Part shown: piece after piece, positions 27,551-45,098 of the stretch
How positions within the stretch are numbered: the stretch's first letter is position 1
How the letters are laid out: each line of letters opens with the position of its first letter
Source: a virus
Strand: one strand, 5' to 3'
Length of the DNA: 64,000 nt
IMG/VR virus record: IMGVR_UViG_2881341136_000002
Coordinates: 1,733 to 65,732 of that record
Position numbers and translations under genes: made by a program
The notes under the pieces: model-generated
What the model saw: the letters and a program-made list of their open reading frames with translations, nothing else
Databases searched by the model: none
What the model was told of the DNA's origin: nothing

Positions 27551-28572
27551 GCGTCACCGTCCTTGCGTTCCACCTGCGGAGCAGCGGAAACCATGGCGGT
27601 GTATATGTCGCTATAGTTCACGTCAAGAGAGCCGCCCATACCTCTGGTTACTCCACAACCAATAGCGGCACCTGTCATTTCCGGCGTCGGCGCTAACGGC
27701 ACCAATACCCAATCATCCGGAATTACCGGAGATTTGCCACCTCGGAGCATGGCGGCGCGGCAGGCGTTCCAGCCTGATTTTTGCTGGACGATTCCAAATT
27801 GCCTTAGCATCTCAGCAACAGCGATGAATGAGCCAAATTCATAATATTTCGCCGGATCATTATCTTGATGGCGTCCACCTAGATGCGCTGCCCAATCTCC
27901 ATAGGTCCATTCAAAACGATCGCTATGTTGTTCATCCGGCACCGTGTAAGGCTGGCTAATGCTTGAATGCAGAGCGCGGGTTTCACGCAGGCATGTATTC
28001 CAGGCTATGAAAGCGGCCTGTTGCTCTGCGTCTGTACGTAGACCCCACTTAGCTCTTGCTTCATGCATTGTAATGCCGGACGGGAGCTCTAGTTGGCTTG
28101 CGGCTGGTGGAAGCGAATAGACGAGAGCGCCAGCGGGGACGTCACATAGCCACGTCACTGATCCATTGTCTTGGTCAATTTCACCAATCGGTTCGGCTAC
28201 CATAATCGCCTTTCCGTCATAAGCTGCGAGTCCCGTCCGTAACTGCTGGTTCTCTTCTTGGTGCTCTTTTGCCGTTCTGCGTAGCTTGTTCGCCAGCACT
28301 ACTGATTCGGACAGCTCAGATCGCAGTGATAGCACTGCGTCGTTTAGTCGCGATATTTCGGCAATGACGCCAGCCTGAACGCTTGTATTGACCGGGATAT
28401 TCAGCGCGGAACGGATGCTGTTTAGTTGCAAATCCATGTCAGCGTTTGCCGCCACCAGCATTTCCATGCGATTAGCGATAGCGTTTAGTTTTTCGCGCCC
28501 CTGCTCCGTGTCTGCTATGCCAGCAACGGTGCGCATCGCTTCGATTAATTGAGCTGTTGATAATGTGGTCAT
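27547..28572 (-). CDS. Ead/Ea22-like mosaic protein
   Basis: WNACRAAML and VIPDDWVLVP.PT.EM modules. Confidence 0.6.
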   Translation of the reverse strand: MTTLSTAQLIEAMRTVAGIADTEQGREKLNAIANRMEMLVAANADMDLQLNSIRSALNIPVNTSVQAGVIAEISRLNDAVLSLRSELSESVVLANKLRRTAKEHQEENQQLRTGLAAYDGKAIMVAEPIGEIDQDNGSVTWLCDVPAGALVYSLPPAASQLELPSGITMHEARAKWGLRTDAEQQAAFIAWNTCLRETRALHSSISQPYTVPDEQHSDRFEWTYGDWAAHLGGRHQDNDPAKYYEFGSFIAVAEMLRQFGIVQQKSGWNACRAAMLRGGKSPVIPDDWVLVPLAPTPEMTGAAIGCGVTRGMGGSLDVNYSDIYTAMVSAAPQVERKDGDA

Positions 28573-28823
28573 TTGGTCTTGCCTCGTTTTTGGTCGTGAT
28601 ATTCGCGCCAGTGATTCAGGCGCGCTCTAAAATGTTCCCGATACTGCTCCGCTACCGTGTCCAGCTCTTTTTCAACGTGGCGCCGCAGTGTTTTTCCCGC
28701 GATTAACGAGTTGATCAGCTGATTGGCTCGTTTATCCAGTTCCAACTTGTCCTGAAACTCTCGCGGCCACTCAGCGATATTGATCGGTAGCCCAGCGGGC
28801 AGATAATCCGAGTTTTCGTACAC
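28569..28823 (-). CDS. Hypothetical protein
   Basis: Coupled ORF in operon. Confidence 0.65.
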   Translation of the reverse strand: MYENSDYLPAGLPINIAEWPREFQDKLELDKRANQLINSLIAGKTLRRHVEKELDTVAEQYREHFRARLNHWREYHDQKRGKTK

Positions 28824-28825
28824 GG

Positions 28826-29305
28826 TTATTCACCCGTCATGCCGCGACCGGCCCGGTCTGAATTCAGATAAAAATCTTTATCAACCGACTCAAGAGTGAA
28901 TTCAGGCGTCGGTTTTTCGTGACGTGTAATTTTTACGTGCGGGGAATTGATCATTGATGTCAGTCGCCCACTGAGTTTTATCAGCGTCGTACCATGACCG
29001 GGATAGTGTTTATCCAGTGCTGCCAGAATCTGTGTTTTAGTCAGCGTCTTCCCGATCATCACGCTGATGAGGCTTTTTGCATCCAGCGTTACATGTGGCT
29101 TGGCCTTTTTCTGTTTCCGGCTAGCAGTTTTAAGGAGTGGAGCGAACTTAGGTTTAACAACCTGAACTGGCGCAGGAGCCGGCACGTACGGTGAACGTGT
29201 GCGAGCGCGGGCGTTTGCGTTCATAGTCCAGATGATCCGCGCGGTGTGGTCGCAGCCATCGTCGGTCATGAATGGGCGTGCGTAAATAACATCAATTGTA
29301 ATCAT
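28826..29305 (-). CDS. Hypothetical (possible DNA-binding) protein
   Basis: ORF after helicase with motif RBS. Confidence 0.65.
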   Translation of the reverse strand: MITIDVIYARPFMTDDGCDHTARIIWTMNANARARTRSPYVPAPAPVQVVKPKFAPLLKTASRKQKKAKPHVTLDAKSLISVMIGKTLTKTQILAALDKHYPGHGTTLIKLSGRLTSMINSPHVKITRHEKPTPEFTLESVDKDFYLNSDRAGRGMTGE

Positions 29306-29352
29306 TTGGTCTTGCCTCTTTGGTCGGTTAATTAGGCGCTGGTCAGGCGCGG

Positions 29353-30762
29353 TTAAAATGCTTGGATTGTTTCTTTTTTGGTGTAACGTCTTGCCCTGGG
29401 TGTTTCGTTTCTGCTTCTTCGTTGTGCGATATCCTCATCAGTTGTGTCTCTGAAGTACCCATCTGTCAGCAGGACATGAGCGGTACCGGATGGCCCCTCA
29501 CGGTTTAATCGCAAAATCACCTCAGTCAGTTGTGGGTCTGCGTTCTCGTCATAGACACCTTCCCGATAGAGGCCGATCCACACGTCGCAATCTTGCTCGA
29601 TCTGTCCGCTGTCCTTACTGTCCGAGGGTAACGGGCGTTTATCTGCTCGTTGCTCAAGGCTGCGGTTAAGTTGAGTGAGCAACAGCACAACGCAATTCAA
29701 TTCTTTCGCCAGATTCTTTAGGCCTGTCGTTATCGCGCCGTAGCTGATATCTCGCCGCTCTGCGGCTTCTCCACGCATTAGTGTGAGGTAGTCAATAGCA
29801 ACCAAGCCAACGGCACCACGCTGGCGCTTGATTCGTCTACACTCCCCTGTAACGTGGGCAAGAGAAATGCCAGACGTGCTGTCAATAAACATGTTCGACT
29901 CAGCGATGTCTTTTGCCATCGCCATTGCTCGGCTCATGTCGCTTTCGTTGTGAGCGCCAACATAGAAAATATTCGAGCTGGTGCGGGATTCTTGACTCAC
30001 CATTCTTTCAATCAGTCGGGCATCGGTCATTTCCAGACTAAACAGCAGCGTTGGTAATCTGTGGTTCAAAGCGAAATGGGTGGCTACGCGGTTGTAAAAC
30101 GCGGTTTTCCCCATTTTGGGGCGTGCACCAACGACAACGAGCGAACCGCGTAAAACATGTTTGGGCTCCATCACTCGATCGAGGTCTTCTATCCCCAGGG
30201 TCAGGCCACCAGCATGCTCAGGGTTACTGAATCGCTGCTCAACTTCCGCAAGCCAATCATCAACAACGTCAAGCGCTGGCCGTAATCCGCTGCTGCGCCC
30301 TGTAGCTGTTGCCTCGAAAGCCTGATTAACTAATTGCTGGGCGCTGCTTAAACGCTCTTCGATGCTCATTGAACCGCGAGCAACGATGATTTCTGCGCTG
30401 GCGGCCAGCTTGCGCTGAATATAGCGAGCCATTGCGTTATCACGAACGATCCCCGCATATGCCAATACGTTTGCAGCTGCCGGAATCTTGCAGATATCGG
30501 CCAGATACGAAAAACCGCCGCAAAGCTCAATTTCTCCTCTGGTTTTCAACTCATCACTCAGGGTGATCAGATCAATGGGCTGGTGCTGCCTGACTAGATC
30601 CGTTATGCACTGATAAATCAATTTGTGCTGACGGAGATAAAACGATTCTGGTTTCAGCATCGATAGCACGGTACCGCGCAGATCATCATCGTCATGCAGC
30701 ATCAGGCCGCCCAGCGTAGCCTGTTCAGCGCCGGTGTTATGCGGCGGTACGAATTCACCCAT
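29353..30762 (-). CDS. Replicative DnaB-like helicase
   Basis: GARPKMGKT Walker A, FSLEM, IDYL, LTQLNR, SDSKDSGQIEQDCD. Confidence 0.95.
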   Translation of the reverse strand: MGEFVPPHNTGAEQATLGGLMLHDDDDLRGTVLSMLKPESFYLRQHKLIYQCITDLVRQHQPIDLITLSDELKTRGEIELCGGFSYLADICKIPAAANVLAYAGIVRDNAMARYIQRKLAASAEIIVARGSMSIEERLSSAQQLVNQAFEATATGRSSGLRPALDVVDDWLAEVEQRFSNPEHAGGLTLGIEDLDRVMEPKHVLRGSLVVVGARPKMGKTAFYNRVATHFALNHRLPTLLFSLEMTDARLIERMVSQESRTSSNIFYVGAHNESDMSRAMAMAKDIAESNMFIDSTSGISLAHVTGECRRIKRQRGAVGLVAIDYLTLMRGEAAERRDISYGAITTGLKNLAKELNCVVLLLTQLNRSLEQRADKRPLPSDSKDSGQIEQDCDVWIGLYREGVYDENADPQLTEVILRLNREGPSGTAHVLLTDGYFRDTTDEDIAQRRSRNETPRARRYTKKETIQAF

Positions 30763-31357
30763 GATTACCCGTCCTGTAGCTGTCCCATGCGAACGGGATT
30801 ACCGCGGCGCTTTCCATAACGCGATCCATTGCCCGGTAACCGAGAAACGTGTCCAGTTCTTCCCGCGTGTAGTTGCTCACCAGAATGCACGGCAGCATCT
30901 GTTCATACCGAGTGTTGATGACCTCAGAAACCAGCAGGCGCTCTGAGTCGGTTCCGTGCTGCATGCCGATCTCATCGATAACGAGTAAATCCTGATCGCA
31001 GTAAAAGCCGAGGACGTCATACTCGGTGCGCTCACTGTTCTGTCTCCAACTGTCACGCATGGCACGAATGATGCGCTGTGCGGTTGTGAGGTAAACGTCA
31101 GCGTCGTGACGCTCAATCAGAGCGCGCATCACTGCGACAGATAGGTGCGTTTTTCCGGTGCCTGGTCGTCCCAGCAGGAGCATGTTTGATCCGTTCTCCG
31201 TCACCCCGCCCCATTCGCTGACGAATTGCTCGCAGGCGTTAAGGGCCTGTTTTGCTGGTTCGTTGATTGGGTTGAAATTCTCAAGTGATGCAGAAGAGAA
31301 CCGACGACCAACGCCGCTGTTTTGCGTCAGAATCTTTGTGATTTCGTCACTGGTCAT
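30755..31357 (-). CDS. DnaC/IstB-like helicase loader
   Basis: GRPGTGKTHL, LLVIDEIG, SN, DRV motifs. Confidence 0.92.
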   Translation of the reverse strand: MTSDEITKILTQNSGVGRRFSSASLENFNPINEPAKQALNACEQFVSEWGGVTENGSNMLLLGRPGTGKTHLSVAVMRALIERHDADVYLTTAQRIIRAMRDSWRQNSERTEYDVLGFYCDQDLLVIDEIGMQHGTDSERLLVSEVINTRYEQMLPCILVSNYTREELDTFLGYRAMDRVMESAAVIPFAWDSYRTGNHG

Positions 31358-32181
31358 TATTTCCGCTCCCCATGTCTAAAGCTGAAGCTGGCGGTACCGT
31401 AATCGCGAGACTGCATATCCTTCGTTGTATCGCTGGGCTTTGTTGCTGGGCGAAGCTGTTGCGGCTGCGAAGACACCACCCATGAGTTTTCCCATTCACG
31501 ACTGGGGCCATAGAACCGCTGCGCCTGCATCACGTACGGTGTGCCACTTTGCCCTTTTGCTACACAGAACGCGGCGTAGCGCTGAGTGCCTGCCAGCAGT
31601 TCATCCGGAGTGACCCCCTCTTTGATTCGGGCCTGCCAGTGTTTGAATGCATGATTTTTCGGATTTGACCCCTCTCGTTTTGGATATGCTTTCCAGCAGG
31701 ATTCAAATTCATCCGAGTGGGGGTTGGTTAATTTCTTGCTCGCGTCATCGCCAGATGACACAAGTGTTTTTTTGTTTGTATTCAGTTCTTGTTTTAATTC
31801 ATTACTTATTAGTGGGGGATTTGCCGTCTCCGGCTTAACCGTCGCCGGATTATCCGTCTCCGGTGAAATTCGAGGTACTTCGCTGACCACGTAAGACACG
31901 CCATCAAACGATCCAGTGGTGTTACGTTTAGTATCAGCGTGCACGTACCCGGATGTTTTTAACTCGTTGAGTAATCCCCTAACAGCATCCCGCCCTGCTG
32001 GTTTGCCAGATCCCTTTGTCTGGTTAATCAAATCAGCAACGGAAACCTCCCAGTTATCTGGCTTGCCGAGCAGGTAAATCAATAGCCCACGTGCGCCCCA
32101 AGACAACGAGAGATCTTCACTAATCGATTTATCCAGCGTATAAAATTGCGATTCAGGCCGCGGGCCTCGTCTGATAGCCAT
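31357..32181 (-). CDS. Replication initiator protein
   Basis: LSWGARGLLIYLLGKPDNW wHTH; FESCWKAYPKR C-domain; internal iterons. Confidence 0.85.
   Translation of the reverse strand: MAIRRGPRPESQFYTLDKSISEDLSLSWGARGLLIYLLGKPDNWEVSVADLINQTKGSGKPAGRDAVRGLLNELKTSGYVHADTKRNTTGSFDGVSYVVSEVPRISPETDNPATVKPETANPPLISNELKQELNTNKKTLVSSGDDASKKLTNPHSDEFESCWKAYPKREGSNPKNHAFKHWQARIKEGVTPDELLAGTQRYAAFCVAKGQSGTPYVMQAQRFYGPSREWENSWVVSSQPQQLRPATKPSDTTKDMQSRDYGTASFSFRHGERK
31824..31863. repeat. Three 10-bp iterons (CCGTCTCCGG/CCGTCGCCGG), 15-bp period: probable origin
   Basis: Repeats at 31824, 31839, 31854 next to an AT-rich tract at ~31765-31810. Confidence 0.7.
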
Positions 32182-32183
32182 AA

Positions 32184-32408
32184 TTAAACCCCCAGCGCGT
32201 CCGCTATCTGCCGTACTGCGTCCTGATATTCTTCAGGTGATAGGTTCAGCATTTTTAATGCCGCCTTGCTTTTCTCGTATTGCTCCCACACGGAAAGCGC
32301 AACAACGCGACGGCCATCAAATACCGGTTCAACATCTTCAATGCTGACGGGCTGGCCATTCAGCCGGAATCCGTTCCGGTATGTAATCCTGTCGATTCGT
32401 GTAAGCAT
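32184..32408 (-). CDS. Hypothetical protein (start reassigned to MLTRIDR)
   Basis: ATG preceded by the GAGGCAAGACCA motif. Confidence 0.7.
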   Translation of the reverse strand: MLTRIDRITYRNGFRLNGQPVSIEDVEPVFDGRRVVALSVWEQYEKSKAALKMLNLSPEEYQDAVRQIADALGV

Positions 32409-32421
32409 TGGTCTTGCCTCG

Positions 32422-32874
32422 CTATGCAACTAACTGCTGAGTAACTGGCAACAGCGCATACATCGCCTCTGTCGCTTTATTTATTCGTTGTGACATGTCA
32501 CAGCATCCGAGCAACACAGCACTCATCGCTGTGGAAAATTCACGGATGGCGATCGCGGTCAGGTAGTTAACAGATCGGTCATTCTGCAAACGAGCCCGCC
32601 GTTCTCCGGGTAATGCCGCCAGCATCACTGGCGCCAGCAACTGGATTTTTCTCTGTGCTGCGCGTGAGCCACTACGCAACCAGCGGAAAATCTGCTGCCT
32701 GTTGTTATTAATGGCTTTCCAGTCAGCAACGCCGTGCTGCTCGATTTCATGCAGCCGGATATGTGGATCGCCGCCAGCAAGAAAAAATCGCCTGGTTATC
32801 TCGATCGCTACAGTTTCCTGTCCTGCATCAACCGCCCACAATTCGATCTCGTTCGTCAGCTCCTGAATATTCAT
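32422..32874 (-). CDS. YdaT/CII-like regulator
   Basis: NRQQIFRWL...IQLLAPVMLAALP; position after cro. Confidence 0.75.
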   Translation of the reverse strand: MNIQELTNEIELWAVDAGQETVAIEITRRFFLAGGDPHIRLHEIEQHGVADWKAINNNRQQIFRWLRSGSRAAQRKIQLLAPVMLAALPGERRARLQNDRSVNYLTAIAIREFSTAMSAVLLGCCDMSQRINKATEAMYALLPVTQQLVA

Positions 32875-32919
32875 TGCGTCTCCTGTCGCAAATTGATTTT
32901 TGATAATCAGATTTTTTGG

Positions 32920-33114
32920 TTATGCCTCGTTATTGTTTTGCCCATACAAAACAGGGTCGTATTTCAATACGCCATTTGTCATGCGCTCTAAAAGTAGCGC
33001 GTACTTCCATGGGACCAGATCAGGCCAGACAGATACTGTAGATTTAGCTATCCCCAAAAACTTAGCGGTGGCAGTCGTCCCACCGAGATGCTTGAGTACT
33101 TTTTCCTTTTCCAC
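32920..33114 (-). CDS. cro: Cro-like repressor
   Basis: GGTTATAKFLGIAKSTVSVW HTH; divergent from cI. Confidence 0.85.
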   Translation of the reverse strand: MEKEKVLKHLGGTTATAKFLGIAKSTVSVWPDLVPWKYALLLERMTNGVLKYDPVLYGQNNNEA

Positions 33115-33146
33115 TTAAAACCTCGAGATTGATTACCATGACAAAC

Positions 33147-33210
33147 AGTTTAATTTTACGAACAATAAAAAGTCAAGAATACGAACCTTATTTGTTCGAA
33201 AATAAGAACA
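33147..33210. promoter_or_regulatory. OR operators (AGTTT-N7-CGAAC type)
   Basis: AGTTTaattttaCGAAC at 33147; GTTCGaaaataaGAACA at 33194. Confidence 0.65.
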
Positions 33211-33866
33211 TGAAAAAAATGAACATACACGACCGAATCAACTTAAGAATGGCCTTGCTTACATTGAAAAGCAGGCACTTAGTTGATGCTACCGGGGCTT
33301 CCAAAGCGACAGTAAGTCAGTGGGTGAATGGCGGTTCCGAACCCTCTGCCAGATACATCCCTTCGCTTGCTAGAGTTCTCAGGGTTTCAGAAAACTGGCT
33401 CTTAGAAGGGGGGCCATTAATTGAGCCTCATCCAGAGACTGGGCACTCAATACCCATCCGCGTTAGAGACATACCGCTAATAACTCTTGAGCAAGCTGCA
33501 ATCTGGCACTCTTTAATGACCGACTCCTTTGAGGACGAGATAGAATTAATAGAGGTTCCTGATCTGGTAACGCCCTATGCGTTTGCTGTGAGAATGGAAA
33601 ATAATTCTATGATGGACCTATCTGGGCAGGGGTTGTCGATACCAATAGGTTCAATACTGATAACTGATGTGGGCAGGCAGGTAAAATCGGGCTCAATTGT
33701 TGTCGCAGCGATCGAGAATCACCGTGAAGCGGTAATAAAACGCTACGTTGCTGACGGCCCAAACAAATATTTAATGTCTATAAATCAAAGTTTTGACAAA
33801 ATACTTTTTAATGAAAAAAGCACGATTATTGGCGTCTGTGTAAAAATGCAAATGAACCTAATCTAA
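33210..33866 (+). CDS. cI: CI repressor (HTH + S24 peptidase), start reassigned to MKKMN
   Basis: ASKATVSQWVNG HTH; RMENNSM Ser motif and AVIKRY Lys motif. Confidence 0.9.
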   Translation: MKKMNIHDRINLRMALLTLKSRHLVDATGASKATVSQWVNGGSEPSARYIPSLARVLRVSENWLLEGGPLIEPHPETGHSIPIRVRDIPLITLEQAAIWHSLMTDSFEDEIELIEVPDLVTPYAFAVRMENNSMMDLSGQGLSIPIGSILITDVGRQVKSGSIVVAAIENHREAVIKRYVADGPNKYLMSINQSFDKILFNEKSTIIGVCVKMQMNLI

Positions 33867-33890
33867 CCTAACCCACCCTCTTTACAAACA

Positions 33891-33913
33891 AGCCGGCTGA
33901 AGCCGGTTTTTTT
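33891..33913 (+). terminator. Terminator after cI
   Basis: CCGGC-TGAA-GCCGG followed by T7. Confidence 0.8.
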
Positions 33914-33928
33914 GTGTCCAACACAAAA

Positions 33929-33982
33929 AGTTTATCGTTACGAACAAAACGGGATTGACAGAAAAGTTCGTTTATATAAACT
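33929..33982 (+). promoter_or_regulatory. OL operators overlapping pL
   Basis: AGTTTatcgttaCGAAC (33929) and GTTCGtttatatAAACT (33966) flank TTGACA at 33955, with a -10-like TAAACT at 33977. Confidence 0.7.
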
Positions 33983-34075
33983 AATATCCATCAGCAGCGA
34001 ACGGGCAGAACTCCTACGAAGCAATACCATGAGTTACTTTGTGACCTGCCTAGCTAAGTAGCCAGTCCGAGGCAA

Positions 34076-34516
34076 ATGAATATGACGACGGTTGATGAAT
34101 GTATAGACCATGGAAGAGTTGGAAATGCAGATGGGTACCTTGCTACAAACAGAAAAATAGATGGTGTTTTAAGAAGTTGCTATCTGCACAGGTTGGTTTA
34201 TTGCCAATCACAAGGGTTAACTCTTGAAGATATTAACGGATTAGTTGTCAGGCACAAATGCGACAACCCGCGGTGCGTAAACCCGAACCACCTAGAAACA
34301 GGGACGGTAAGGGACAACAACATAGATTGCGTTTTGAGAGGGAGACACCCAAAACCAAACGCAAGGATCGATTTGGAAACCGCTGAAAAGATACGCAGCG
34401 AATATAAAACGAGAGAAGTAACACAGAAGCAAATTGGCGAGAAGTACGGACTTTCTCGAACGCACATCGGAGGTATTGTGCGGCATGAGGCTTGGAAAGC
34501 AAACGAAATTACGTAG
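34076..34516 (+). CDS. HNH homing endonuclease with C-terminal HTH
   Basis: VRHKCDNPRCVNPNHLETGT..DN motif. Confidence 0.88.
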   Translation: MNMTTVDECIDHGRVGNADGYLATNRKIDGVLRSCYLHRLVYCQSQGLTLEDINGLVVRHKCDNPRCVNPNHLETGTVRDNNIDCVLRGRHPKPNARIDLETAEKIRSEYKTREVTQKQIGEKYGLSRTHIGGIVRHEAWKANEIT

Positions 34517-35114
34517 CCACAGCGGGAAAGTGTGGCAAGGCAAGACCAACCCACATCGCAGACCACGCTCACTGAGTGGCGATGTGGGAAATCAACCAGG
34601 CGCAGTTGCGCTTTTTGGGTAACACGTTCTGACAGCGGGAAAGACTGCGATCACACCAGAGATACGGTCGTAAGTTCTGCTCCGATTGGAGTGGTAAAGC
34701 GACGCCGGATAGCGTAACCGGCACAAATTTGATTTGGAACGCTCCCCACCTGACGGTTTCTGCGGAACTGAACGGTGTGTTCTCCTGACGCATAGAGAGT
34801 CAATGCTAAGGCCGTCCGATGGCGCGTAAACGGGGTTAGCCTGAGTCCTCGATAAACCACGGATAAAACAGTGCCGTCCGCTCCACGTTACGGAGCACTG
34901 AATTTAAAGCATGGCGAAAGCCGAAAGACTTGAAGGCGATTTTCTCGGTTTGCGCGCTAAAGCATAGCGGGGGTGAAATCGGGGCGGAGAAGCAGAATCC
35001 GCGATGTCGGGACTTGATACTTCCGGCCAGACCAACAAGCCGACTGGTAGCGTTACTACCCTTTGCACCTAATCCGGCGAGGTAGCGCTGCCGGACCGGA
35101 TTAGGTGAATCGCT

Positions 35115-35290
35115 CACAACAGATAAGAGCATTTAGGGGACGGCGACTGTTTTACAGGCTGACAAGCGAACCGGAGATAGTGCTCTTATCGTTGTGGTGA
35201 ATGCACAGGCTGATGTGCCAAACCAGACTGGAAACAGTCGGGAGTCAGGCAAGACAAAGCTGGGATAACCGGTGGCGGCCACCACACAAA
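35115..35290 (+). ncRNA. C4-like antisense RNA with upstream a1/b1-like hairpin
   Basis: TGTGGTG/CACCACA closing stem, GTGAATGCACAGGCTGATGTG head; 16-bp CACAAC-GATAAGAGCA/TGCTCTTATC-GTTGTG leader stem. Confidence 0.65.
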
Positions 35291-35293
35291 ATT

Positions 35294-35352
35294 TAGCGAT
35301 CAGGTGATTAATGGGTTTCCCTGCCCGTTACTCGGTTCGACTCCGAGCGCTA
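35294..35352 (+). other. tRNA-like element (acceptor-like stem plus T-arm, no complete cloverleaf)
   Basis: TAGCG/CGCTA closing stem; CTCGG-TTCGACT-CCGAG T-arm; central TAATGGG/CCCGTTA hairpin. Confidence 0.5.
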
Positions 35353-35403
35353 TTCGAAATCACGTTGCCATCGTGAGAACTGCGAGAGAACTGCTGTGTA
35401 GTC

Positions 35404-35450
35404 ATTGGGCGGTGTGGGTTTTCGACCTTTACCCTATCCGCCAATTTTTT
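35404..35450 (+). terminator. Intrinsic terminator in the early-left operon
   Basis: ATTGG(G)CGG...CCGCCAAT stem followed by T6. Confidence 0.65.
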
Positions 35451-35459
35451 CGCAGACGT

Positions 35460-35596
35460 AAAAAAGCCCACCGTTAGGCAGGCTTCGTTACCCCGGTTAA
35501 CCGACCAAAGTATCACCGGGAGCGACAGAGGGGACCAACCCTCCATCGAGGCAAGACCAATGACAACCGAAGCCGACATTGATCGGTGTGATTATA
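35460..35596 (-). ncRNA. Predicted ~125-nt antisense RNA with its own -10 and terminator
   Basis: Minus-strand TATAAT at 35596-35591 (weak -35); terminator AAGCCTGC-N6-GTGGGCTT-TTTT at 35485-35460. Confidence 0.5.
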
Positions 35597-35901
35597 CGAG
35601 GAACGCTATGAAAGCGCCAGAAATCACAATCACGCTGTACCTCCATCTCAGCGCTTATACAGCTAAACCATTAATTGGCACATGTGACATGTCACAATAT
35701 GGTCATGCGTTAATTTCAACGTGTGAAGTCTCTGTGCCATTCCCTGAAGTAACCCCCGAATATCTGGCTGAACGCAAGATGTCAGCACTAAGAGAGCAGC
35801 AACAAAAGGTTCTCTCCGACGCTCAAACCAAAGCGAATGAACTTGAAGACCAGGTTCAGAAATTGCTGTGCGTTGAGCGCCAGTCAAAAAACCACGCTTA
35901 A
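35560..35901 (+). CDS. Hypothetical protein (alternative start MKAPE)
   Basis: ORF with motif RBS; coiled-coil C-terminus. Confidence 0.7.
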   Translation: MTTEADIDRCDYTRNAMKAPEITITLYLHLSAYTAKPLIGTCDMSQYGHALISTCEVSVPFPEVTPEYLAERKMSALREQQQKVLSDAQTKANELEDQVQKLLCVERQSKNHA

Positions 35902-35919
35902 CCGACCGAGGTAAGACCA

Positions 35920-38175
35920 ATGCCAAACTTTATTGTGGATTACGATCCCAAAAAATCAGCCCTGAAAAACGGGGCTGTTTCGTTAGCTATCACCGTTGAT
36001 GCAAAAAATAAAAAGCTGGCTGAGATGTCAGCGACCATGAAAATGGAGGAGGAGTTTCCGGGCGCAAGCGACAACTTTCTCAAACCGCGTGTAATAGAAG
36101 ACGCGATCGGCTCTCCACGCCCCGCACTTAATAAATTCGATGAAGTATTCCCGAAAGAAAACGAGGTTGTAGATGGTGTCTGGCGGCGTATCGAAGCGCC
36201 GGCACAAGCTAACGATCTCGTCGATTTCTCGACACTGTCGTTGCGCGAAAAAATCGCTGCGTTCGCGCTGTATGCGCAGGTTGAAATCACAGAGCATGAG
36301 TTTTCGATGGTGTGTGATTATCTCGATCTGCCTGATGGCGATGGGGATGCTGACGCAGACACGGACAAGCTGATCCGTGTACTCAGCGGCATTGAATTGC
36401 TGGAGCAGGCCACTGACGACTTGCTGCTCAATGTAGTGAATTCGGTTACTGCTCAATTCCCATCTATCGCCGATGTACCAGAGCGAGAAATTCTGGCGTT
36501 CGTTGATACGCTGACAAACAAACCCAACGAAGATACTCCAGCAAAAATACCATCGATCGCTGGGCTTGATCGTGAGCGTCAGTACACCCATACGTACGCC
36601 ATGTTGGATAAAGAAGTTGCGGCGGCTCTTGTGCGTGACGCAGCAGACTGCTGGGAACTGACAGCCGATCATGTCCGTGAATCTAATGTCCTGATTAATC
36701 AAAACGGTGAAGAATTCCAGCGCTGGTCTATGGAATTGCGTACGGCAGAAAACGCACTAAAAATCCCCCGCCCTATTGTTTTCGCGCTGGTTAGCGCAGG
36801 GAAAAAACGCCCTGAACTACTGAAAGACGCAAACGCCCGCCGCCAGTTCGTGGTTGATTTTCTCGCAGAGCATATGCAATCAGAATCCACCATATCGCAG
36901 AACCACAAAGCAGAAGGAGGGATGTCCACTGAAGAAGAAGAAGAACACGCCAGAGAAAATCTGCGCAGAGGATTTGAGGAATTTAGCAGGAAAACTGACG
37001 CAATATTCGACAATTCCCCTCAGGTTGAAAACCTCGGTCGTGGCCGATTCTCTATTGATGGCCTAACTGGTGACTCAGCATCAAATCAGGGCGAAAAAAC
37101 GGAAGTGGCCAGCGCAATCAATACACCTAAGGCTGAATCAAAGCAGCCTGAAACCGTTACGCCCCTCACACAAGGCGGCGCAGCTGGTGAACAGGTTATC
37201 AGCGACAGCACCGCGCAGCAGGCAAAAGAGTCGCTCGATCAATTGGGGTACGGTGTTTACGCAACCGAAACGGAAGCACCAGCACCAGCACCAGCAGACG
37301 ATTTTCAGCAAAGGGCTGAAGCTATAGAAGCCGAGATCGCAAAGAAAACCGATGGGGAACAAGAAAACCTCAATATCTGGAAACGGGTACAGCGCACAGA
37401 TCCGCGCTACACGAAACCGCTTGCAGGTGCAGGATTTGAAGGTACCAGCATTAACAGCGAATACATGATCATGCGGGCTACTGAAATCTTTGGCCCAGTC
37501 GGTAGCGGCTGGGGTTATCGCGTTTTGGAAGAGAAAATGATCCCTGGCGCGCCGCTGAGTGAATCGCTCTATGACGACAACAAAAAATTCATTGGCGTAA
37601 AACTGCTGCGTGATGCGGACGGGTCGCTTATCAGTGAATTGAATCACTCGCTGAAAATCGCCTTTTGGTACCTCAGCGATGAAAGCGAGCGTTCAGAGAT
37701 CGAAGCATATGGCGCAACGCCGTACATGTACAAAACCAAGACGGGGATTAAAGCAGACTCTGAAGTTATGAAAAAGAGCCTCACTGACTCCATCAAAAAA
37801 GCGCTGTCGCTGCTTGGTTTCAGTGCGGACGTGTGGCTCGGTATGCATGACAATCCTGAATACGCGATCGAAAACGCGATTGAATTCCAAATCAAAAACG
37901 CGAGCGATCGGGCTGAAGATACCGTGCGCCTGCGCACCGAGCTTGATGAGAAATTCACGAAGAACGCAGCGACGCTGGAGAAAGCTGTCAACGTCAACGA
38001 GGTTAACAAGGTGTTCGGTACCATCGCTCGTGAATTGGAAGTACACAGAAAAAACGCAGAGGCCAAAGGCGACACTGAGCACGCTAGATACCTCGCTGGC
38101 CGCCTGCGCCGCCTGAACCAAATCAAAGACGAGCGCATTTCAGCGCTTAACGCCACTGAAGGAGAAAAAGCATGA
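35920..38175 (+). CDS. RecE-like N-terminal region fused to a Rad52/Sak-like annealing domain
   Basis: N-terminal PRPALNKFD RecE-like segment; C-terminal FGPVGSGWG...KKSLTDSIKKALSLLGFSADV. Confidence 0.7.
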   Translation: MPNFIVDYDPKKSALKNGAVSLAITVDAKNKKLAEMSATMKMEEEFPGASDNFLKPRVIEDAIGSPRPALNKFDEVFPKENEVVDGVWRRIEAPAQANDLVDFSTLSLREKIAAFALYAQVEITEHEFSMVCDYLDLPDGDGDADADTDKLIRVLSGIELLEQATDDLLLNVVNSVTAQFPSIADVPEREILAFVDTLTNKPNEDTPAKIPSIAGLDRERQYTHTYAMLDKEVAAALVRDAADCWELTADHVRESNVLINQNGEEFQRWSMELRTAENALKIPRPIVFALVSAGKKRPELLKDANARRQFVVDFLAEHMQSESTISQNHKAEGGMSTEEEEEHARENLRRGFEEFSRKTDAIFDNSPQVENLGRGRFSIDGLTGDSASNQGEKTEVASAINTPKAESKQPETVTPLTQGGAAGEQVISDSTAQQAKESLDQLGYGVYATETEAPAPAPADDFQQRAEAIEAEIAKKTDGEQENLNIWKRVQRTDPRYTKPLAGAGFEGTSINSEYMIMRATEIFGPVGSGWGYRVLEEKMIPGAPLSESLYDDNKKFIGVKLLRDADGSLISELNHSLKIAFWYLSDESERSEIEAYGATPYMYKTKTGIKADSEVMKKSLTDSIKKALSLLGFSADVWLGMHDNPEYAIENAIEFQIKNASDRAEDTVRLRTELDEKFTKNAATLEKAVNVNEVNKVFGTIARELEVHRKNAEAKGDTEHARYLAGRLRRLNQIKDERISALNATEGEKA

Positions 38176-38672
38176 CAACCACCGCTATTGCGCTTGCGCA
38201 TGATTTGCAGAAGCTCCAGCAATTGCTGGAAACGTCCGACGATTTAACGCCAGAAATGATCGCCGACACAATGGAAGGGTTAGAGCTGGAGTTAGCAGAC
38301 AAACTGGATGGCGCATACATCCACGTCCGCAACCTGGAGGGATTGGCAAAAACGTGTGATGAAGAAGTTAAGCGCCTTACCGACCGCAAAAAATCGTTTG
38401 AGAACCGCGCCAAATCAATCAAGGGCTATGTGTTGAATTGCCTGCTGGCTGCCAACCTCGACAAGCTCAAAACGACCACCAACACATTTACAGCCCGTAA
38501 GGGTGTCGCAAGTGTGATTATCGATAATGAAGGCCTGTTGCCTGATGATTTGGTAGCAGTTCAAACTATCGTGGCGCCGGACAAAAAAGCCATCAAAGAG
38601 GCCATTGAAAACGGCGTGGAAGTACCCGGTGCGCACATTGAGATTGGCGCGCGTTCTCTGCAAGTTCGATAA
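38172..38672 (+). CDS. Siphovirus Gp157-family protein
   Basis: IADTMEGL...PDKKAIKEAIENGVEVPGA. Confidence 0.85.
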   Translation: MTTTAIALAHDLQKLQQLLETSDDLTPEMIADTMEGLELELADKLDGAYIHVRNLEGLAKTCDEEVKRLTDRKKSFENRAKSIKGYVLNCLLAANLDKLKTTTNTFTARKGVASVIIDNEGLLPDDLVAVQTIVAPDKKAIKEAIENGVEVPGAHIEIGARSLQVR

Positions 38673-38707
38673 CGGCTGACCACCGTATAGCAAGCGAGGC
38701 AAGACCA

Positions 38708-38884
38708 ATGCTAAAAATGTCGGCAAAGCGAGGGGACGTTATCCATATCGTCTTACCAGATGGCCGGAACGGAATGATAGCAGTGCATTCGCGTAGCGTG
38801 TTCGCATTCCACTTTCCGCCTGATGTTAGGGTGACGTGCGAACGTCGCCAGCCGGAGCAACTGATTAACGATAATCAGAAATAA
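38708..38884 (+). CDS. 58-aa CsrA-like protein (not in ORF track)
   Basis: Own translation MLKMSAKRGDVIHIVLPDGRNGMIAVHSRSVFAFHFPPDVRVTCERRQPEQLINDNQK; motif RBS; ML..S.K.GD.I.I and P.DV.V..E pattern. Confidence 0.6.
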   Translation: MLKMSAKRGDVIHIVLPDGRNGMIAVHSRSVFAFHFPPDVRVTCERRQPEQLINDNQK

Positions 38885-38930
38885 CCCGCCATTAGCAATA
38901 CCGTGTGACCTCCATTTTACGGGGGTCACA

Positions 38931-39137
38931 ATGCAATCATGGAAACCGGGCAAATGCCTGCTATCTGATTTCGACATCAAAATCGGTCGGCTGTCTGCGA
39001 GCGTTAGAAAAATTACCCTAACGCAACAGGATATAGACCAATCCTGCGCAGCGGCCGACGCAATCATTGATAAATTAAGGCAAGACCATGACCGACCTAT
39101 TAACCGACGACGAGCTAATAGAACTGACAGGCTATAA
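38931..39137 (+). CDS. Hypothetical protein overlapping xis
   Basis: ORF with SD sequestered in a 10-bp hairpin. Confidence 0.5.
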   Translation: MQSWKPGKCLLSDFDIKIGRLSASVRKITLTQQDIDQSCAAADAIIDKLRQDHDRPINRRRANRTDRL

Positions 39138-42264: not shown

Positions 42265-43095
42265 TTAACCAATGCATACTTTAGTAAACGCTTTACCATA
42301 ACTTGTTAGGCCAAAGCATTTTTTATAAATTACTGCATGACTGTCACAAGTGCTGTTGATTTTGTTAATCATATCAGCCACATGTGTTTCTTTTAAAACC
42401 TCATCATATTGTTCTTGTTTCATATAAGAAAGACCATTGGGTATTTCACATATCCCGAGCCTACACAGATTATCTACATACATAGAGAATTTTTGATGAC
42501 TATTAATTCCAGCCTCTACTCCCACTAAAGAATAATTTCTTATAAAAGGTGCCTCCCCACCCGTGGCATTCATTTTTGCGTTGACATCAATTATAGGGAT
42601 GGAGTATTTATCATTAATTAATTTTATTATCACTGCTTCATTAGAGCTAAGTTGTTTTATAATTTCCACAAAGCTAGGGTGAATGTTATCAGCCTTATTT
42701 TTATCCATGGCTGAAGCCAAAAGATTAGCAAAAACATCACTTATAAAATCATCATCGCCGCTATACCGCAATGCTTCAATTAAAGGAACTGCTATATTAG
42801 CCTTAGGTGTAATAATATCTTCCGGCTTTGTATCTTTTAATTTCTCAGTAACTTTAGGAATGAATTTTCTTTCTATATCATCAATTTTCCACACCATCAC
42901 ACGTAACGGTAAAAGGGCGGAATTTATTGATTTGGCAATAACAGCAAGACCTTTACCTAGCTCCTGTGCTGCTGGTTGTATCAAATCCTGATACACAGAC
43001 ACTGACTGTGTAAGCCCAGTCACAGCATTAATAGTTTCTGCAACTTTGTTATTTCCAGAGGGATTACCTTTTTCTGAGTTATTTTCATCGTTCAT
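42265..43095 (-). CDS. DUF4393/Abi-alpha-like protein
   Basis: VYQDLIQPAAQELG...IAVPLIEAL...FANLLASAMD...HPSFVEIIKQLS. Confidence 0.75.
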   Translation of the reverse strand: MNDENNSEKGNPSGNNKVAETINAVTGLTQSVSVYQDLIQPAAQELGKGLAVIAKSINSALLPLRVMVWKIDDIERKFIPKVTEKLKDTKPEDIITPKANIAVPLIEALRYSGDDDFISDVFANLLASAMDKNKADNIHPSFVEIIKQLSSNEAVIIKLINDKYSIPIIDVNAKMNATGGEAPFIRNYSLVGVEAGINSHQKFSMYVDNLCRLGICEIPNGLSYMKQEQYDEVLKETHVADMINKINSTCDSHAVIYKKCFGLTSYGKAFTKVCIG

Positions 43096-43120
43096 TTTCC
43101 AACCTCATAAATTAAATGTA

Positions 43121-44008
43121 TTAAACTGCGTAACTTTGCCATTGTTCTTCACTAAGGATTTTTAACGCAGCGCCTCTGTTATCTCGATAATCGATCGCTT
43201 TCTCTATTTTTCTGCCATGAGCCTGATAACGCCAATGTTTACAACTTAAGGTGCCAATAATCAGGTAGTCCAATTTCAGAGTGATGTTATCAACAACCTT
43301 TCCACCAGCTAATTCTATGGCTTCTTTACAAACAGACCTTTTGCCATATAGGAAATCACCCGTTAGGCAAACAACTGCACCATTGAGATTCAGGCTATCA
43401 ATATCATCTACTGGTAAACTGGTTGATAATCCATCAACAATCCCGTTATCAATATCGCTACCTGTAAAAGCGATTAATGCCTGTTTTAGCTCTTCCCGTT
43501 CTTCAGGGGTAATGATGCCATCATCAAGAATTCGCTTAACCAATGCATAAAGCTCTTTGCCTGGGTAATTGACCTTAAGAGCGCCATTAGAGGTTAACCA
43601 CCAGTTAAGGTATTTCACTTCTGAATCATTAAGTTGATGATTGGCTAACATTCCTTTGCATAAACCTTCCAGCAAGTGTTTATCAGCCTCTTCTGAGTAC
43701 AAATCCAGCTCAGGTAAATCAGATAAATCTTTTTGCACTTTAATTAAGTCAGCTTTCAAAAATTTTAACTCATGGGGTTCAATTACCCCGTCAGCCAAAA
43801 TATCAGCGATTCTATGTGAAAGCATTTTTACACAGTAATTCTTATTAATCAGTTCTGATTCTTTTAACCATACATCAAGAAAAAGCACCTCTTTATCATC
43901 AAATTTTCCATCGCTATTAATCCCTTCGATGATATTGATAAGATTAATGAGTAATTTTTCTTTATTGCGTTTGTAGTTAAAGATTTCAATATTATTTTCA
44001 TCAGTCAT
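43121..44008 (-). CDS. BRCT-domain protein with duplicated TerB-like helical repeats
   Basis: Two GI..DG...E...L..W repeats, then CLTGDF...GG.V...DYLIIG...GRKIEKA BRCT. Confidence 0.75.
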   Translation of the reverse strand: MTDENNIEIFNYKRNKEKLLINLINIIEGINSDGKFDDKEVLFLDVWLKESELINKNYCVKMLSHRIADILADGVIEPHELKFLKADLIKVQKDLSDLPELDLYSEEADKHLLEGLCKGMLANHQLNDSEVKYLNWWLTSNGALKVNYPGKELYALVKRILDDGIITPEEREELKQALIAFTGSDIDNGIVDGLSTSLPVDDIDSLNLNGAVVCLTGDFLYGKRSVCKEAIELAGGKVVDNITLKLDYLIIGTLSCKHWRYQAHGRKIEKAIDYRDNRGAALKILSEEQWQSYAV

Positions 44009-44056
44009 GATTTGATCACCAATTTATTTAAATTTATATTCTTAGAGAAACTGATA

Positions 44057-44659
44057 TCAATGCGCCAACAACATTCCCAGCACGATACCCGCCGCAAGTA
44101 CTGCGCCAAAGATCCGTGGTTCTGCTTTTAGGGTATTTACCACATCCTGCCACGTCTGCACTTTTGGGGATGATGCGTTGGGTGTAGTTCTGCCCTGCCG
44201 TTCATCCAGCCATCTCATTGCTTGCTGAAGCTGGGGGCGGGTTAAATCAATTAACCGGCTTGTACCAAAATTGATGTGACAGAATCGCGTAAGCTGTTCA
44301 CGTAATTCGTTCTGCTGCGTACTTCTTAATAGTTGGGACACTAATTTTTTATTGGCATCCTTTTCCCGACTGCGATCATGTAACGCATTCAGGAAACTTA
44401 GCGCCGTGGAATACTGGCTGATGGTGATTTCTTCAATGCCATTCACACCGAGTTCAGCATGTAAGCGACGCCAAACAAAACGAGCCTCTTCACGCCCTGC
44501 TTCTGCAATATCTTTTACCAGTTGGTTTAATTGGGAACGCTGTGCACTAACCAACGGGCGCAAATCTTCTTTAGTCTGTGGGGCGGCAATATTGATATTT
44601 TTTTCGTAATAATCACGTCCTGCGACCCGATTACTATCCCCTTGAGCCTCTACGGTCAT
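44057..44659 (-). CDS. Hypothetical protein with C-terminal membrane anchor
   Basis: N-terminal RVAGRDY motif; C-terminal IFGAVLAAGIVLGMLL. Confidence 0.7.
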   Translation of the reverse strand: MTVEAQGDSNRVAGRDYYEKNINIAAPQTKEDLRPLVSAQRSQLNQLVKDIAEAGREEARFVWRRLHAELGVNGIEEITISQYSTALSFLNALHDRSREKDANKKLVSQLLRSTQQNELREQLTRFCHINFGTSRLIDLTRPQLQQAMRWLDERQGRTTPNASSPKVQTWQDVVNTLKAEPRIFGAVLAAGIVLGMLLAH

Positions 44660-44681
44660 CCATTACATCCTTGCTGCTTCG

Positions 44682-45098
44682 CTACTTCTTGCCTTCGTGA
44701 TAGTCCCTGCCCGCTACGCGCTGGCCGCTACCCGTTACGTTTATCGATCCTGCTGTTGCAGAACTACCCGCCGTCAATGCAGCTAAAGCAGCGGCTTTTA
44801 TCGCCAGTGGCGCAGCACGATAGATTTTGATTAGCTCTAATTCGTCATTAGAAATGTCACCAAGGTCAGGGGTTCTTTTTCCCGTGAGGATATACAAAGT
44901 ATCCATGCCGTAATTTTCACTAAGAAAAGCAAGCGTTGCACCATCAGGCGCAGTTTCGCCACGCTCGTATTTTCCCCAAGTCCTTGTTGTCGTGCCTAAT
45001 TCTTCAGCAATTGCACTCTGACTTTTACCAATCGTTTCCCGCTCTTCGCGCAAACGCCCACCAATAAGGAATAAAAATTCCTCTTTCGAAGTTGACAT
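44682..45098 (-). CDS. XRE-family immunity repressor
   Basis: GGRLREERETIGKSQSAIAEELGTTTRTWGKYERG HTH; divergent from early operon. Confidence 0.85.
   Translation of the reverse strand: MSTSKEEFLFLIGGRLREERETIGKSQSAIAEELGTTTRTWGKYERGETAPDGATLAFLSENYGMDTLYILTGKRTPDLGDISNDELELIKIYRAAPLAIKAAALAALTAGSSATAGSINVTGSGQRVAGRDYHEGKK

Follow-up and report, generated by a model that had tools for sequence, protein, structure and literature searches.

The window analyzed here is a 64,000-nucleotide (nt) stretch of IMG/VR virus record IMGVR_UViG_2881341136_000002 (positions 1,733 to 65,732), a 66-kb provirus record whose early region matches Pectobacterium phage ZF40 with 84% identity over 60%. An 11-nt motif, AGGCAAGACCA, recurs at the starts of early genes in this window, and its complement forms the 5′ part of a small RNA gene on the minus strand at 35460-35584. 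We propose that this one phage-encoded antisense RNA probably pairs with the motif from the Shine-Dalgarno (SD) sequence to the AUG and represses a regulon private to the phage. The role of the motif as a pairing site, which we regard as likely, is argued from sequence comparison: the motif itself; the promoter, structure, terminator, and strand of the RNA gene; homology to the Salmonella RNA IsrB; co-occurrence of RNA and motif; and their co-variation. An original prediction, made from the letters of the window, had proposed a phage-private translational regulon with a common trans-acting factor and had likened its sites to those bound by CsrA. The regulon is supported by exact motif copies across proviruses and by a motif that changes with the phage element, in four classes; the most likely trans-acting factor is the antisense RNA, not a CsrA-like protein. 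Taken together, the comparative evidence is strong enough that we consider an RNA-controlled regulon the likely explanation.

When one mismatch is allowed, the window contains nine copies of AGGCAAGACCA (seven exact, two with a single mismatch), whereas shuffled sequence yielded a mean of 0.93 copies and a maximum of three. All nine copies fall in the early region, within the 10.5 kb between 28.5 and 39.1 kb, and each lies on the strand of the local genes. An ATG follows the motif by 0 to 1 nt in seven of the nine (28572, 29305, 32408, 35560, 35920, 38708, and 39088), at the coordinates the original prediction had given. In its general form, (C/A)GAGGCAAGACCA(A)AUG, the motif spans the SD sequence GAGG, an 8-nt spacer, and the start codon, and 12 to 17 bases are complementary to the small RNA at six or seven early-gene ribosome-binding sites (RBSs). 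On the minus strand, these sites belong to a gene for a 341-amino-acid (aa) gp18-like protein (motif at 28574-28584, inside the 3′ end of a theta-like coding sequence; ATG 28572; predicted duplex −33.0 kcal/mol), a 159-aa gp16-like gene (29307-29317; ATG 29305; −30.0 kcal/mol), and a 74-aa gp13-like gene (32409-32419; ATG 32408; −33.1 kcal/mol). On the plus strand, they belong to the gene for a 751-aa RecE-like exonuclease (35909-35919, present as AGGTAAGACCA with one mismatch; ATG 35920; −31.3 kcal/mol), a 58-aa gp05-like gene (38697-38707; ATG 38708; −31.0 kcal/mol), and an excisionase gene of the DUF4224 family (39078-39088; ATG 39088; −29.9 kcal/mol). The duplexes predicted at these six trans sites, at −30 to −33 kcal/mol, compare with a background of −11.7 ± 3.7 kcal/mol over all 30-nt windows. 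ZF40 carries the motif at orthologous places.

The small RNA gene, about 125 nt long and IsrB-like, is supported by folding, alignment, and covariance models. Its −10 box, TATAAT, lies at 35591-35596 on the minus strand and overlaps the start region of a gp08-like gene on the other strand; transcription is predicted to begin near 35584 and to end at an intrinsic terminator (35461-35485, minus strand) that was found by a terminator scan and whose helix is conserved, with compensatory changes. From 5′ to 3′, the RNA comprises a 5′ hairpin, HP0 (GAUCAAUG..CAUUGGUC), a single-stranded seed, UUGCCUC, a hairpin HP1 with the loop UUGGUC, a hairpin HP2 with the loop CUUUGGUCGG, and a GC-rich terminator hairpin followed by a U-run. 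The 5′ part of the RNA reads CAUUGGUCUUGCCUC and is exactly complementary to GAGGCAAGACCAAUG. The predicted fold has a free energy of −56.4 kcal/mol (z score, −4.8). In an alignment of 21 sequences, 95.5% of the cells in four helices can pair, and double changes occur in 14 of 33 pairs, compared with 2 to 6 in slid controls, in which one partner was shifted by 1 to 3 columns and pairing was 30 to 51%. G-U pairs occupy 163 of 693 helix cells, such that pairing reaches 95% on the antisense strand versus a possible 71% on the sense strand. Because a G-U pair on one strand is an A-C mismatch on the other, this bias indicates that the structure is selected on the antisense strand. The three GACCAA copies noted earlier at 35503, 35533, and 35555 are all present, and the hairpins said to hold them in loops exist, but the strand bias makes them better read as hairpins of the antisense RNA presenting UUGGUC. 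Promoter elements are likewise conserved: in 68 of 72 distinct homologues, UUGGUC is preceded at a distance of 20 to 31 nt by a TAnnnT hexamer (TAAAAT, TATACT, TATATT, TATAAT, or TATAGT), and TTGTGC or TAGTGC stands at −35 spacing. A simple promoter scan did not call this promoter, whose −35 element is weak. From these features we infer that the RNA is expressed in this phage and where its exact 5′ end lies.

The complement of CAUUGGUCUUGCCUC in DNA is itself a motif copy, located in cis at the small RNA gene (35549-35559, plus strand). The original prediction had counted the ATG at 35560 as a gene start. The motif does abut that ATG, but an in-frame ATG at this place is found in this phage only; in relatives, the cis copy precedes a 4-codon mini-open reading frame (ORF), AAC, or ATA (ATA in ZF40), and the conserved start of the gp08-like gene is ATGAAAGC, with an SD sequence of its own, at 35608 here. 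Because relatives start the gene at ATGAAAGC and ZF40 has ATA after the motif, we do not regard the cis copy as an RBS; it appears to be kept as part of the antisense RNA gene. The gp08 ORF of ZF40 as annotated (locus L001, 8800-9288) spans both the small RNA gene and the motif copy. Relatives place the real start at the downstream ATGAAAGC, and the ORF as deposited probably extends too far in the 5′ direction.

The RNA is related to a known family, albeit distantly. At the gathering threshold, Rfam gave no matches anywhere in the window, whereas a permissive scan of 33800-35700 returned a full-length alignment to isrB (1-87/87) at 35461-35547 on the minus strand (21.9 bits; E value, 0.4). A covariance model built from the window's own RNA family (R1) scores the window at 92 bits and also finds isrB of Gifsy-1 (8322-8447, minus strand; 34.1 bits; E value, 7e-9), such that detection is reciprocal. 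A BLAST search of the RNA region against the phage collection matched ZF40 alone; recognizing the homology to Gifsy isrB needed covariance models. IsrB of Salmonella was mapped as an RNA of 88/94 nt, antisense, between a small gene and an exonuclease VIII gene (PMC2330248), and it is expressed in a Gifsy-2 lysogen in which the lytic genes are silent (PMC7067206). Like IsrB of Gifsy-1 and Gifsy-2 (RF01386), the window RNA lies antisense just upstream of a RecE-like exonuclease gene in an early-left operon: here the RNA is at 35460-35584 on the minus strand and the exonuclease start at 35920 on the plus strand, and in Gifsy-1 isrB lies between STM2631 and an exodeoxyribonuclease VIII-like gene. 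Both RNAs have two internal hairpins followed by an intrinsic terminator, and the HP2 loop GCUUUGGUCGGU is identical. They differ at the 5′ end, where the window RNA has an extension (HP0 and the seed) that completes the anti-RBS sequence, whereas Gifsy IsrB starts close to where the seed lies and has neither UUGGUCUUGCCUC nor UUGGUC in HP1. On structural, positional, and reciprocal grounds, and despite a score under the Rfam threshold, the window RNA appears to be a distant, 5′-extended relative of IsrB. The literature searched reports no function for IsrB.

We next consider how consistently RNA and motif occur together. A scan pattern drawn from the RNA alone (the HP2 loop and the bases after it, excluding the motif) identified 102 loci among viral contigs, all with the invariant UUGGUCUUGCCU. 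At least two motif copies lie within about 10 kb in 99 of these loci (mean, 4.0; maximum, 7), whereas chance matches of the same scan (n = 12) have none. Conversely, each of five further records with multiple motif copies contains exactly one RNA gene. RNA and repeated motif are found together in more than 100 proviruses and in about 32 species of Enterobacterales. In species-representative genomes, the hosts are Providencia, Proteus, Morganella, Xenorhabdus, Photorhabdus, Yersinia, Rouxiella, Serratia, Pectobacterium, and Symbiopectobacterium; wherever the locus is long enough for a judgment, two or more motif copies are present, whereas chance matches in other phyla have only the copy belonging to the pattern itself. 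Exact copies persist across proviruses spanning 36 to 50% GC with unrelated flanks, and those of 36 to 43% GC have 5 to 8 exact copies each. At the orthologous starts of exo, the gp13-like gene, and xis, almost every lineage has the motif, either exact or altered by a single mismatch or 1-nt indel (exact or with one mismatch in 13 of 14 exonuclease contexts), and overall the motif precedes about 10 unrelated gene families. Gifsy-1, where IsrB lacks the anti-motif and the early genes lack a common motif, serves as a natural negative control. Separately, a 12.5-kb scaffold in a record titled Martelella alba, an alphaproteobacterium (L282), contains an enterobacterial RNA gene and four motif copies; contamination or mis-binning is the most likely cause.

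RNA and motif also change together. Besides UUG, the RNA core triplet takes three other forms, AUA, AUG, and AGU, and these correspond to the motifs AGGTATGACCA, AGGCATGACCA, and AGGACTGACCA, respectively, at early-gene starts of the same phage. The class-defining triplet lies within the predicted single-stranded seed. The first variant came from a covariance-model search of 151 Enterobacterales genomes, in which most matches scored 23 to 31 bits, lacked the conserved loops, and resembled terminator noise; beyond the copy in the seed genome itself (G011), the only clearly real matches were in genome G057, where UGGUC-AUA-CCU replaces UGGUC-UUG-CCU. This 3.7-Mb genome has eight copies of AGGTATGACCA, versus about 1.8 expected and two for a reversed control. 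The AGGTATGACCA copies are concentrated on the contigs that bear the RNA, where they mark the starts of the exonuclease gene, a gp16-like gene, and other genes, and the canonical motif is at chance level. Two nearly identical AUA-class RNAs, each with a regulon, lie on separate contigs of G057 (C51 and C69; loci L341 and L342), a duplication we liken to IsrB-1/-2 of Salmonella Gifsy-1/-2. In a scan for non-canonical cores, 33 variant-class matches have one to five trans copies identical to the motif that their own core predicts, whereas the 89 unrelated matches have none; a few of the 33 are tandem-repeat artifacts (L367, L460, and the pair L398/L461). Three variant proviruses were examined in full (CheckV completeness of 100% for two and 71% for one). 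Each has five to six copies of its own class motif, at most one copy from any other class, and no canonical copy, and the class copies lie in divergent early operons, mostly abutting ATG. The correspondence extends to the flank: U in the RNA two positions after UUGCCU goes with A at target position −2 (81% and 69%), G at the same RNA position (ZF40 and the window) goes with C at −2 (12/18 and 4/6), and in the AGU class, where the RNA reads CCUUA, UA precedes the targets.

These observations suggest a mechanism in which the seed UUGCCUC, an anti-Shine-Dalgarno mimic, would nucleate pairing and the adjoining CAUUGGUC, held in the 5′ hairpin, would then extend the duplex. The resulting duplex would comprise 16 to 17 contiguous base pairs (bp), from −2/−3 through the SD sequence (GAGG) and the spacer to the G of AUG. 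The loops UUGGUC and CUUUGGUCGG could add contacts at GACCA(A) or CCGACCAAAG just upstream of several targets; UUGG in the HP1 and HP2 loops is a YUNR-type motif, known from fast-pairing antisense RNAs. The clearest second site is TTAACCGACCAAAG, a 14-nt complement of the HP2 loop at 29318-29331 on the minus strand, directly upstream of the motif at 29307. It is identical to 35497-35510 on the plus strand, just as previously noted, and the RNA model also scores it, on the opposite strand, at 20.5 bits. Similarly, TTAACCGACC at 35898-35907, in the exonuclease leader, matches the HP2 loop, and CGACCAAA upstream of 28584 is a second site matching an RNA loop. Seven GACCA occurrences lie within 60 nt upstream of motif sites versus 0.36 expected, which agrees with the earlier remark that most sites have a second GACCA upstream. 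Because the duplex would block 30S binding, repression is the expected outcome. A single RNA could then hold down replication, recombination, and excision together, perhaps in the lysogen or early after infection or induction.

We considered whether a phage RNA-binding protein recognizes the GACCA(A) sites at gene starts instead, with the antisense RNA irrelevant or an antagonist. The candidate considered is the 58-aa gp05-like protein at 38708, whose confidently predicted structural model (predicted local distance difference test, 86) contains five strands and a short helix in the element order of CsrA, and whose own RBS bears the motif. Sense-strand GACCA is also abundant in both early operons (15 and 12 occurrences versus about 4.7 expected), and the co-variation of cis and trans sites would by itself be compatible with a protein. 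Yet the 58-aa protein has no CsrA match in Pfam (no hits even at an E value of 10) or among PDB sequences, and fold searches with its monomer model (Foldseek against pdb and a wide VIA-align search) returned no CsrA, only generic beta folds with a best Z score of 4.2; CsrA is a strand-swapped dimer, which a monomer may not match. Neither AGGCAAGACCA nor the GACCAA loops contain GGA. A search whose positive control worked detected the protein in all five canonical-class proviruses tested but in none of five variant-class proviruses (two rated complete) that possess both RNA and regulon. The strand-specific G-U pairs assign the conserved hairpins to the antisense RNA, and a protein would need four changes of specificity where the RNA needs none beyond the sites. 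We therefore think a protein factor unlikely. In favor of the RNA are its existence, its structure on the appropriate strand, and 16 to 17 nt of complementarity to the sites. Readings of the site as an Hfq (ARN) or CsrA (GGA) motif were dropped by eye.

The motif could also be an efficient RBS cassette, spread and kept uniform by recombination as a linker for mosaic exchange, with no trans-acting factor at all. The combination of GAGG and an 8-nt spacer is close to the optimum, the genes behind the motif are non-homologous from one phage to another, as would be expected of module-junction linkers, and these phages encode a RecE-like exonuclease. A cassette would nonetheless leave unexplained why each motif-bearing phage has one structured antisense RNA with the complement, why a copy is kept at the RNA gene without a gene start, why the upstream start-less copy is conserved, and why there are four spacers, each matching its own RNA. 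Identity over 11 to 17 nt is also short for homologous exchange, and we consider this explanation improbable. A translational enhancer, in which the spacer CAAGACCA pairs with 16S rRNA, seems to us very improbable indeed. E. coli-type 16S rRNA presumably has UGGUCUUG, an 8-nt complement of the spacer, near position 985, but all seven rRNA copies of Pectobacterium polonicum, from the host genus, read CCTACTCTTG there and lack the complement. This stretch of 16S rRNA lies in a helix of the 30S head, and related hosts have the three other spacer classes. Internal pairing with UGGUCUUG was rejected on the absence of the sequence from Pectobacterium 16S rRNA, and inspection for extended pairing with the 3′ tail of 16S rRNA found nothing beyond GAGG.

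Two motif copies in the window lie away from the starts described above. The first, at 34538-34548 on the plus strand, has no start codon, is preceded by a hairpin with a GGAAAG loop, and heads a non-coding leader of about 1 kb. A start-less copy is found at the equivalent place in ZF40 and in loci L147, L134, and L254, and in the AUA and AUG classes it carries the motif of its own class; this copy may serve as a decoy or in the control of processing or termination. The second, AGGCAAGACAA at 35247-35257 on the plus strand, is present with one mismatch as previously described, but it has no counterpart in ZF40, and about one such occurrence is expected by chance. We therefore treat it as doubtful and probably a chance match. 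Elsewhere, tandem copies about 25 nt apart, the first without a start codon, lie upstream of the RNA locus in L254 (1650-1684, minus strand) and L341 (2049-2085, minus strand) and look like paired pairing sites or decoys.

Such copies raise the question of whether the RNA acts in cis only, in the presumed manner of Gifsy IsrB, on the leader of the gp08-like and exonuclease genes, with the trans copies serving as titrating decoys. The Gifsy homologue has a cis target only, and start-less copies do occur (34538 in the window and the tandem copies in L254). However, most trans copies are placed at the SD-to-AUG region of real genes, with fixed spacing and across about 10 gene families, a placement that decoys do not require, and pairing there would occlude the RBS whatever the copies are for. 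Purely cis action is thus hard to reconcile with the data, and we give it little credence.

Several points weigh against the antisense RNA acting as proposed. The 5′ half of the anti-motif is predicted to be held in a hairpin, so full pairing would need strand invasion. Since the cis copy and the RNA gene occupy one stretch of DNA, co-variation is also expected with a protein of changed specificity or with gene conversion. The isrB score of the window falls under the Rfam gathering score of 35 bits. RNA contigs from related lysogens that cover the region are 1.6 to 17.7 kb long and unstranded, possibly include DNA, and are uninformative on the ends, strand, and level of the RNA; two raw-read runs of the same species label have no reads on the region. 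The copy at 34538 and the cis copy are not RBSs, which implies that the RNA has some further role beyond RBSs. Finally, the direction of regulation is assumed from the geometry of the duplex.

In its proposed mode of action, the window RNA resembles the phage antisense RNAs c4 of P1/P7 and sar of P22, in which loop-presented sequences pair around an RBS and block translation. Heteroimmune classes of c4 are set by the few bases at which RNAs and targets differ (PMC12197685), and RNA and target differ together between phages, as they do in the four matched classes described here. Unlike c4 and sar, which act on one operon (icd/ant), the window RNA would address 5 to 8 cistrons in two divergent operons with no ant gene, the targets being exo, xis, and the gp13-like, gp16-like, gp18-like, and gp05-like genes. 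It also has its own promoter, whereas c4 is processed from the transcript it controls, and Rfam gave no C4 match in 33800-35700 at an E value of 5 or less. Likeness to CsrA/CsrB is confined to repeated short motifs in loops and at the SD sequence; there is no GGA in the motif and no CsrA-family match for any protein tested, and the antisense RNA that carries the repeated loops is a complement of the sites and not their mimic.

A further parallel, by analogy only, is the start-associated sequence (SAS) and extended start-associated sequence (ESAS) of Cluster K mycobacteriophages. The SAS is an asymmetric, 13-bp, SD-containing motif directly upstream of some gene starts; it is conserved across subclusters, precedes unrelated gene families, and in about half of the cases is accompanied by a second upstream element (PMC3203893). 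Its factor was given as “either RNA or protein,” and three Cluster K genomes each have a single SAS copy on the complementary strand (PMC3203893). Like the SAS, the present motif is asymmetric, contains the SD sequence, and marks a subset of genes of unrelated families, whereas the SAS consensus (GGGATAGGAGCCC), hosts, and phage lineage differ, and a complementary RNA has been reported for no SAS but is identified here. By this analogy, the complementary-strand SAS copy would be a place to look for an antisense RNA. In the literature searched, coverage of which was incomplete, neither the present motif nor an IsrB regulon is described; the ZF40 genome paper does not mention the motif, and a 2025 review of phage small RNAs includes neither IsrB nor a multi-gene RBS regulon.

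If the regulon operates as proposed, it would differ in scope from known phage antisense RNAs (c4, sar, and OOP), each of which controls one gene or operon, in that 5 to 8 cistrons apparently share an identical, phage-private RBS. RNA and sites would have diversified together into at least four classes, providing a natural set of possibly orthogonal RNA/RBS pairs, and the IsrB family, known since 2008 without a function, would gain a testable one. The same arrangement offers a candidate mechanism for the unexplained start-associated sequences of mycobacteriophages. ZF40-type phages are a model for anti-CRISPR regulation, and the analysis improves their annotation with a small RNA gene, the true gp08 start, and the heads of coupled blocks. 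A more tentative idea, which we hold as possible though not favored, is that the seed/spacer triplet (CAA, UAU, CAU, or ACU) acts as an address code defining at least four orthogonal classes of translation control among related prophages of Morganellaceae, Yersiniaceae, and Pectobacteriaceae. The RNA of a prophage might then silence the replication, recombination, and excision genes of phages of the same class and not those of other classes, forming an RNA-based, multi-gene layer of immunity apart from the repressor. If true, this would extend to incoming or co-resident phages and would explain the role of the IsrB family.

The arrangement of the early region bears on how far control at each motif could reach. 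On the minus strand, cro-like and cII-like genes are followed by the gp13-like gene (motif) and then by genes for a replication initiator, a DnaC-like loader, and a DnaB-like helicase, with gaps of 2 nt or overlaps from the gp13-like gene to the helicase gene. Further along are the gp16-like gene (motif), a theta-subunit-like gene that begins 2 nt past it, the gp18-like gene (motif), and a 105-aa gene. Along the plus strand, the repressor and HNH endonuclease genes are followed, after about 1 kb that lacks a credible ORF, by the gp08-like gene, the RecE-like exonuclease gene (motif), a Gam-like gene whose start is overlapped by the end of the exonuclease gene, the gp05-like gene (motif), the excisionase gene (motif), and the integrase gene, 3 nt past the excisionase stop. 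The motif thus stands at the first cistron of each tightly spaced block, and from this spacing we infer that whole blocks may be controlled through translational coupling. At 34064-34078 on the plus strand, the HNH endonuclease gene (ATG 34076) has the RBS CCGAGGCAAATG, in which CGAGGCAA is complementary over 8 nt to the RNA seed UUGCCUCG; the gene is a possible seed-only target.

The non-coding leader between the start-less copy and the small RNA (34549-35455, plus strand; about 0.9 kb) has no credible ORF, and parts of it are unlike ZF40, which has the gp09 ORF there. At about 35405-35455, a plus-strand terminator-like hairpin with a T-run lies convergent with the small RNA terminator. A stretch resembling a tRNA T-arm, GGTTCGACTCC, occurs near 35333, although ARAGORN found no tRNA or tmRNA. 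Three short leader stretches (34775-34878, 34911-35134, and 35180-35218) match unrelated phages and genomes in which they are unannotated, with 90% identity to Dickeya LIMEstone-type phages and 81 to 82% identity to Citrobacter phage phiNP and three E. coli chromosomes; an exact 39-nt match occurs in many E. coli chromosomes. These stretches may represent a mobile non-coding element. Outside the early region, GC content falls to 36% at 42 to 44 kb, next to the integrase gene, and this low-GC stretch (42265-45098) fits a foreign accessory module.

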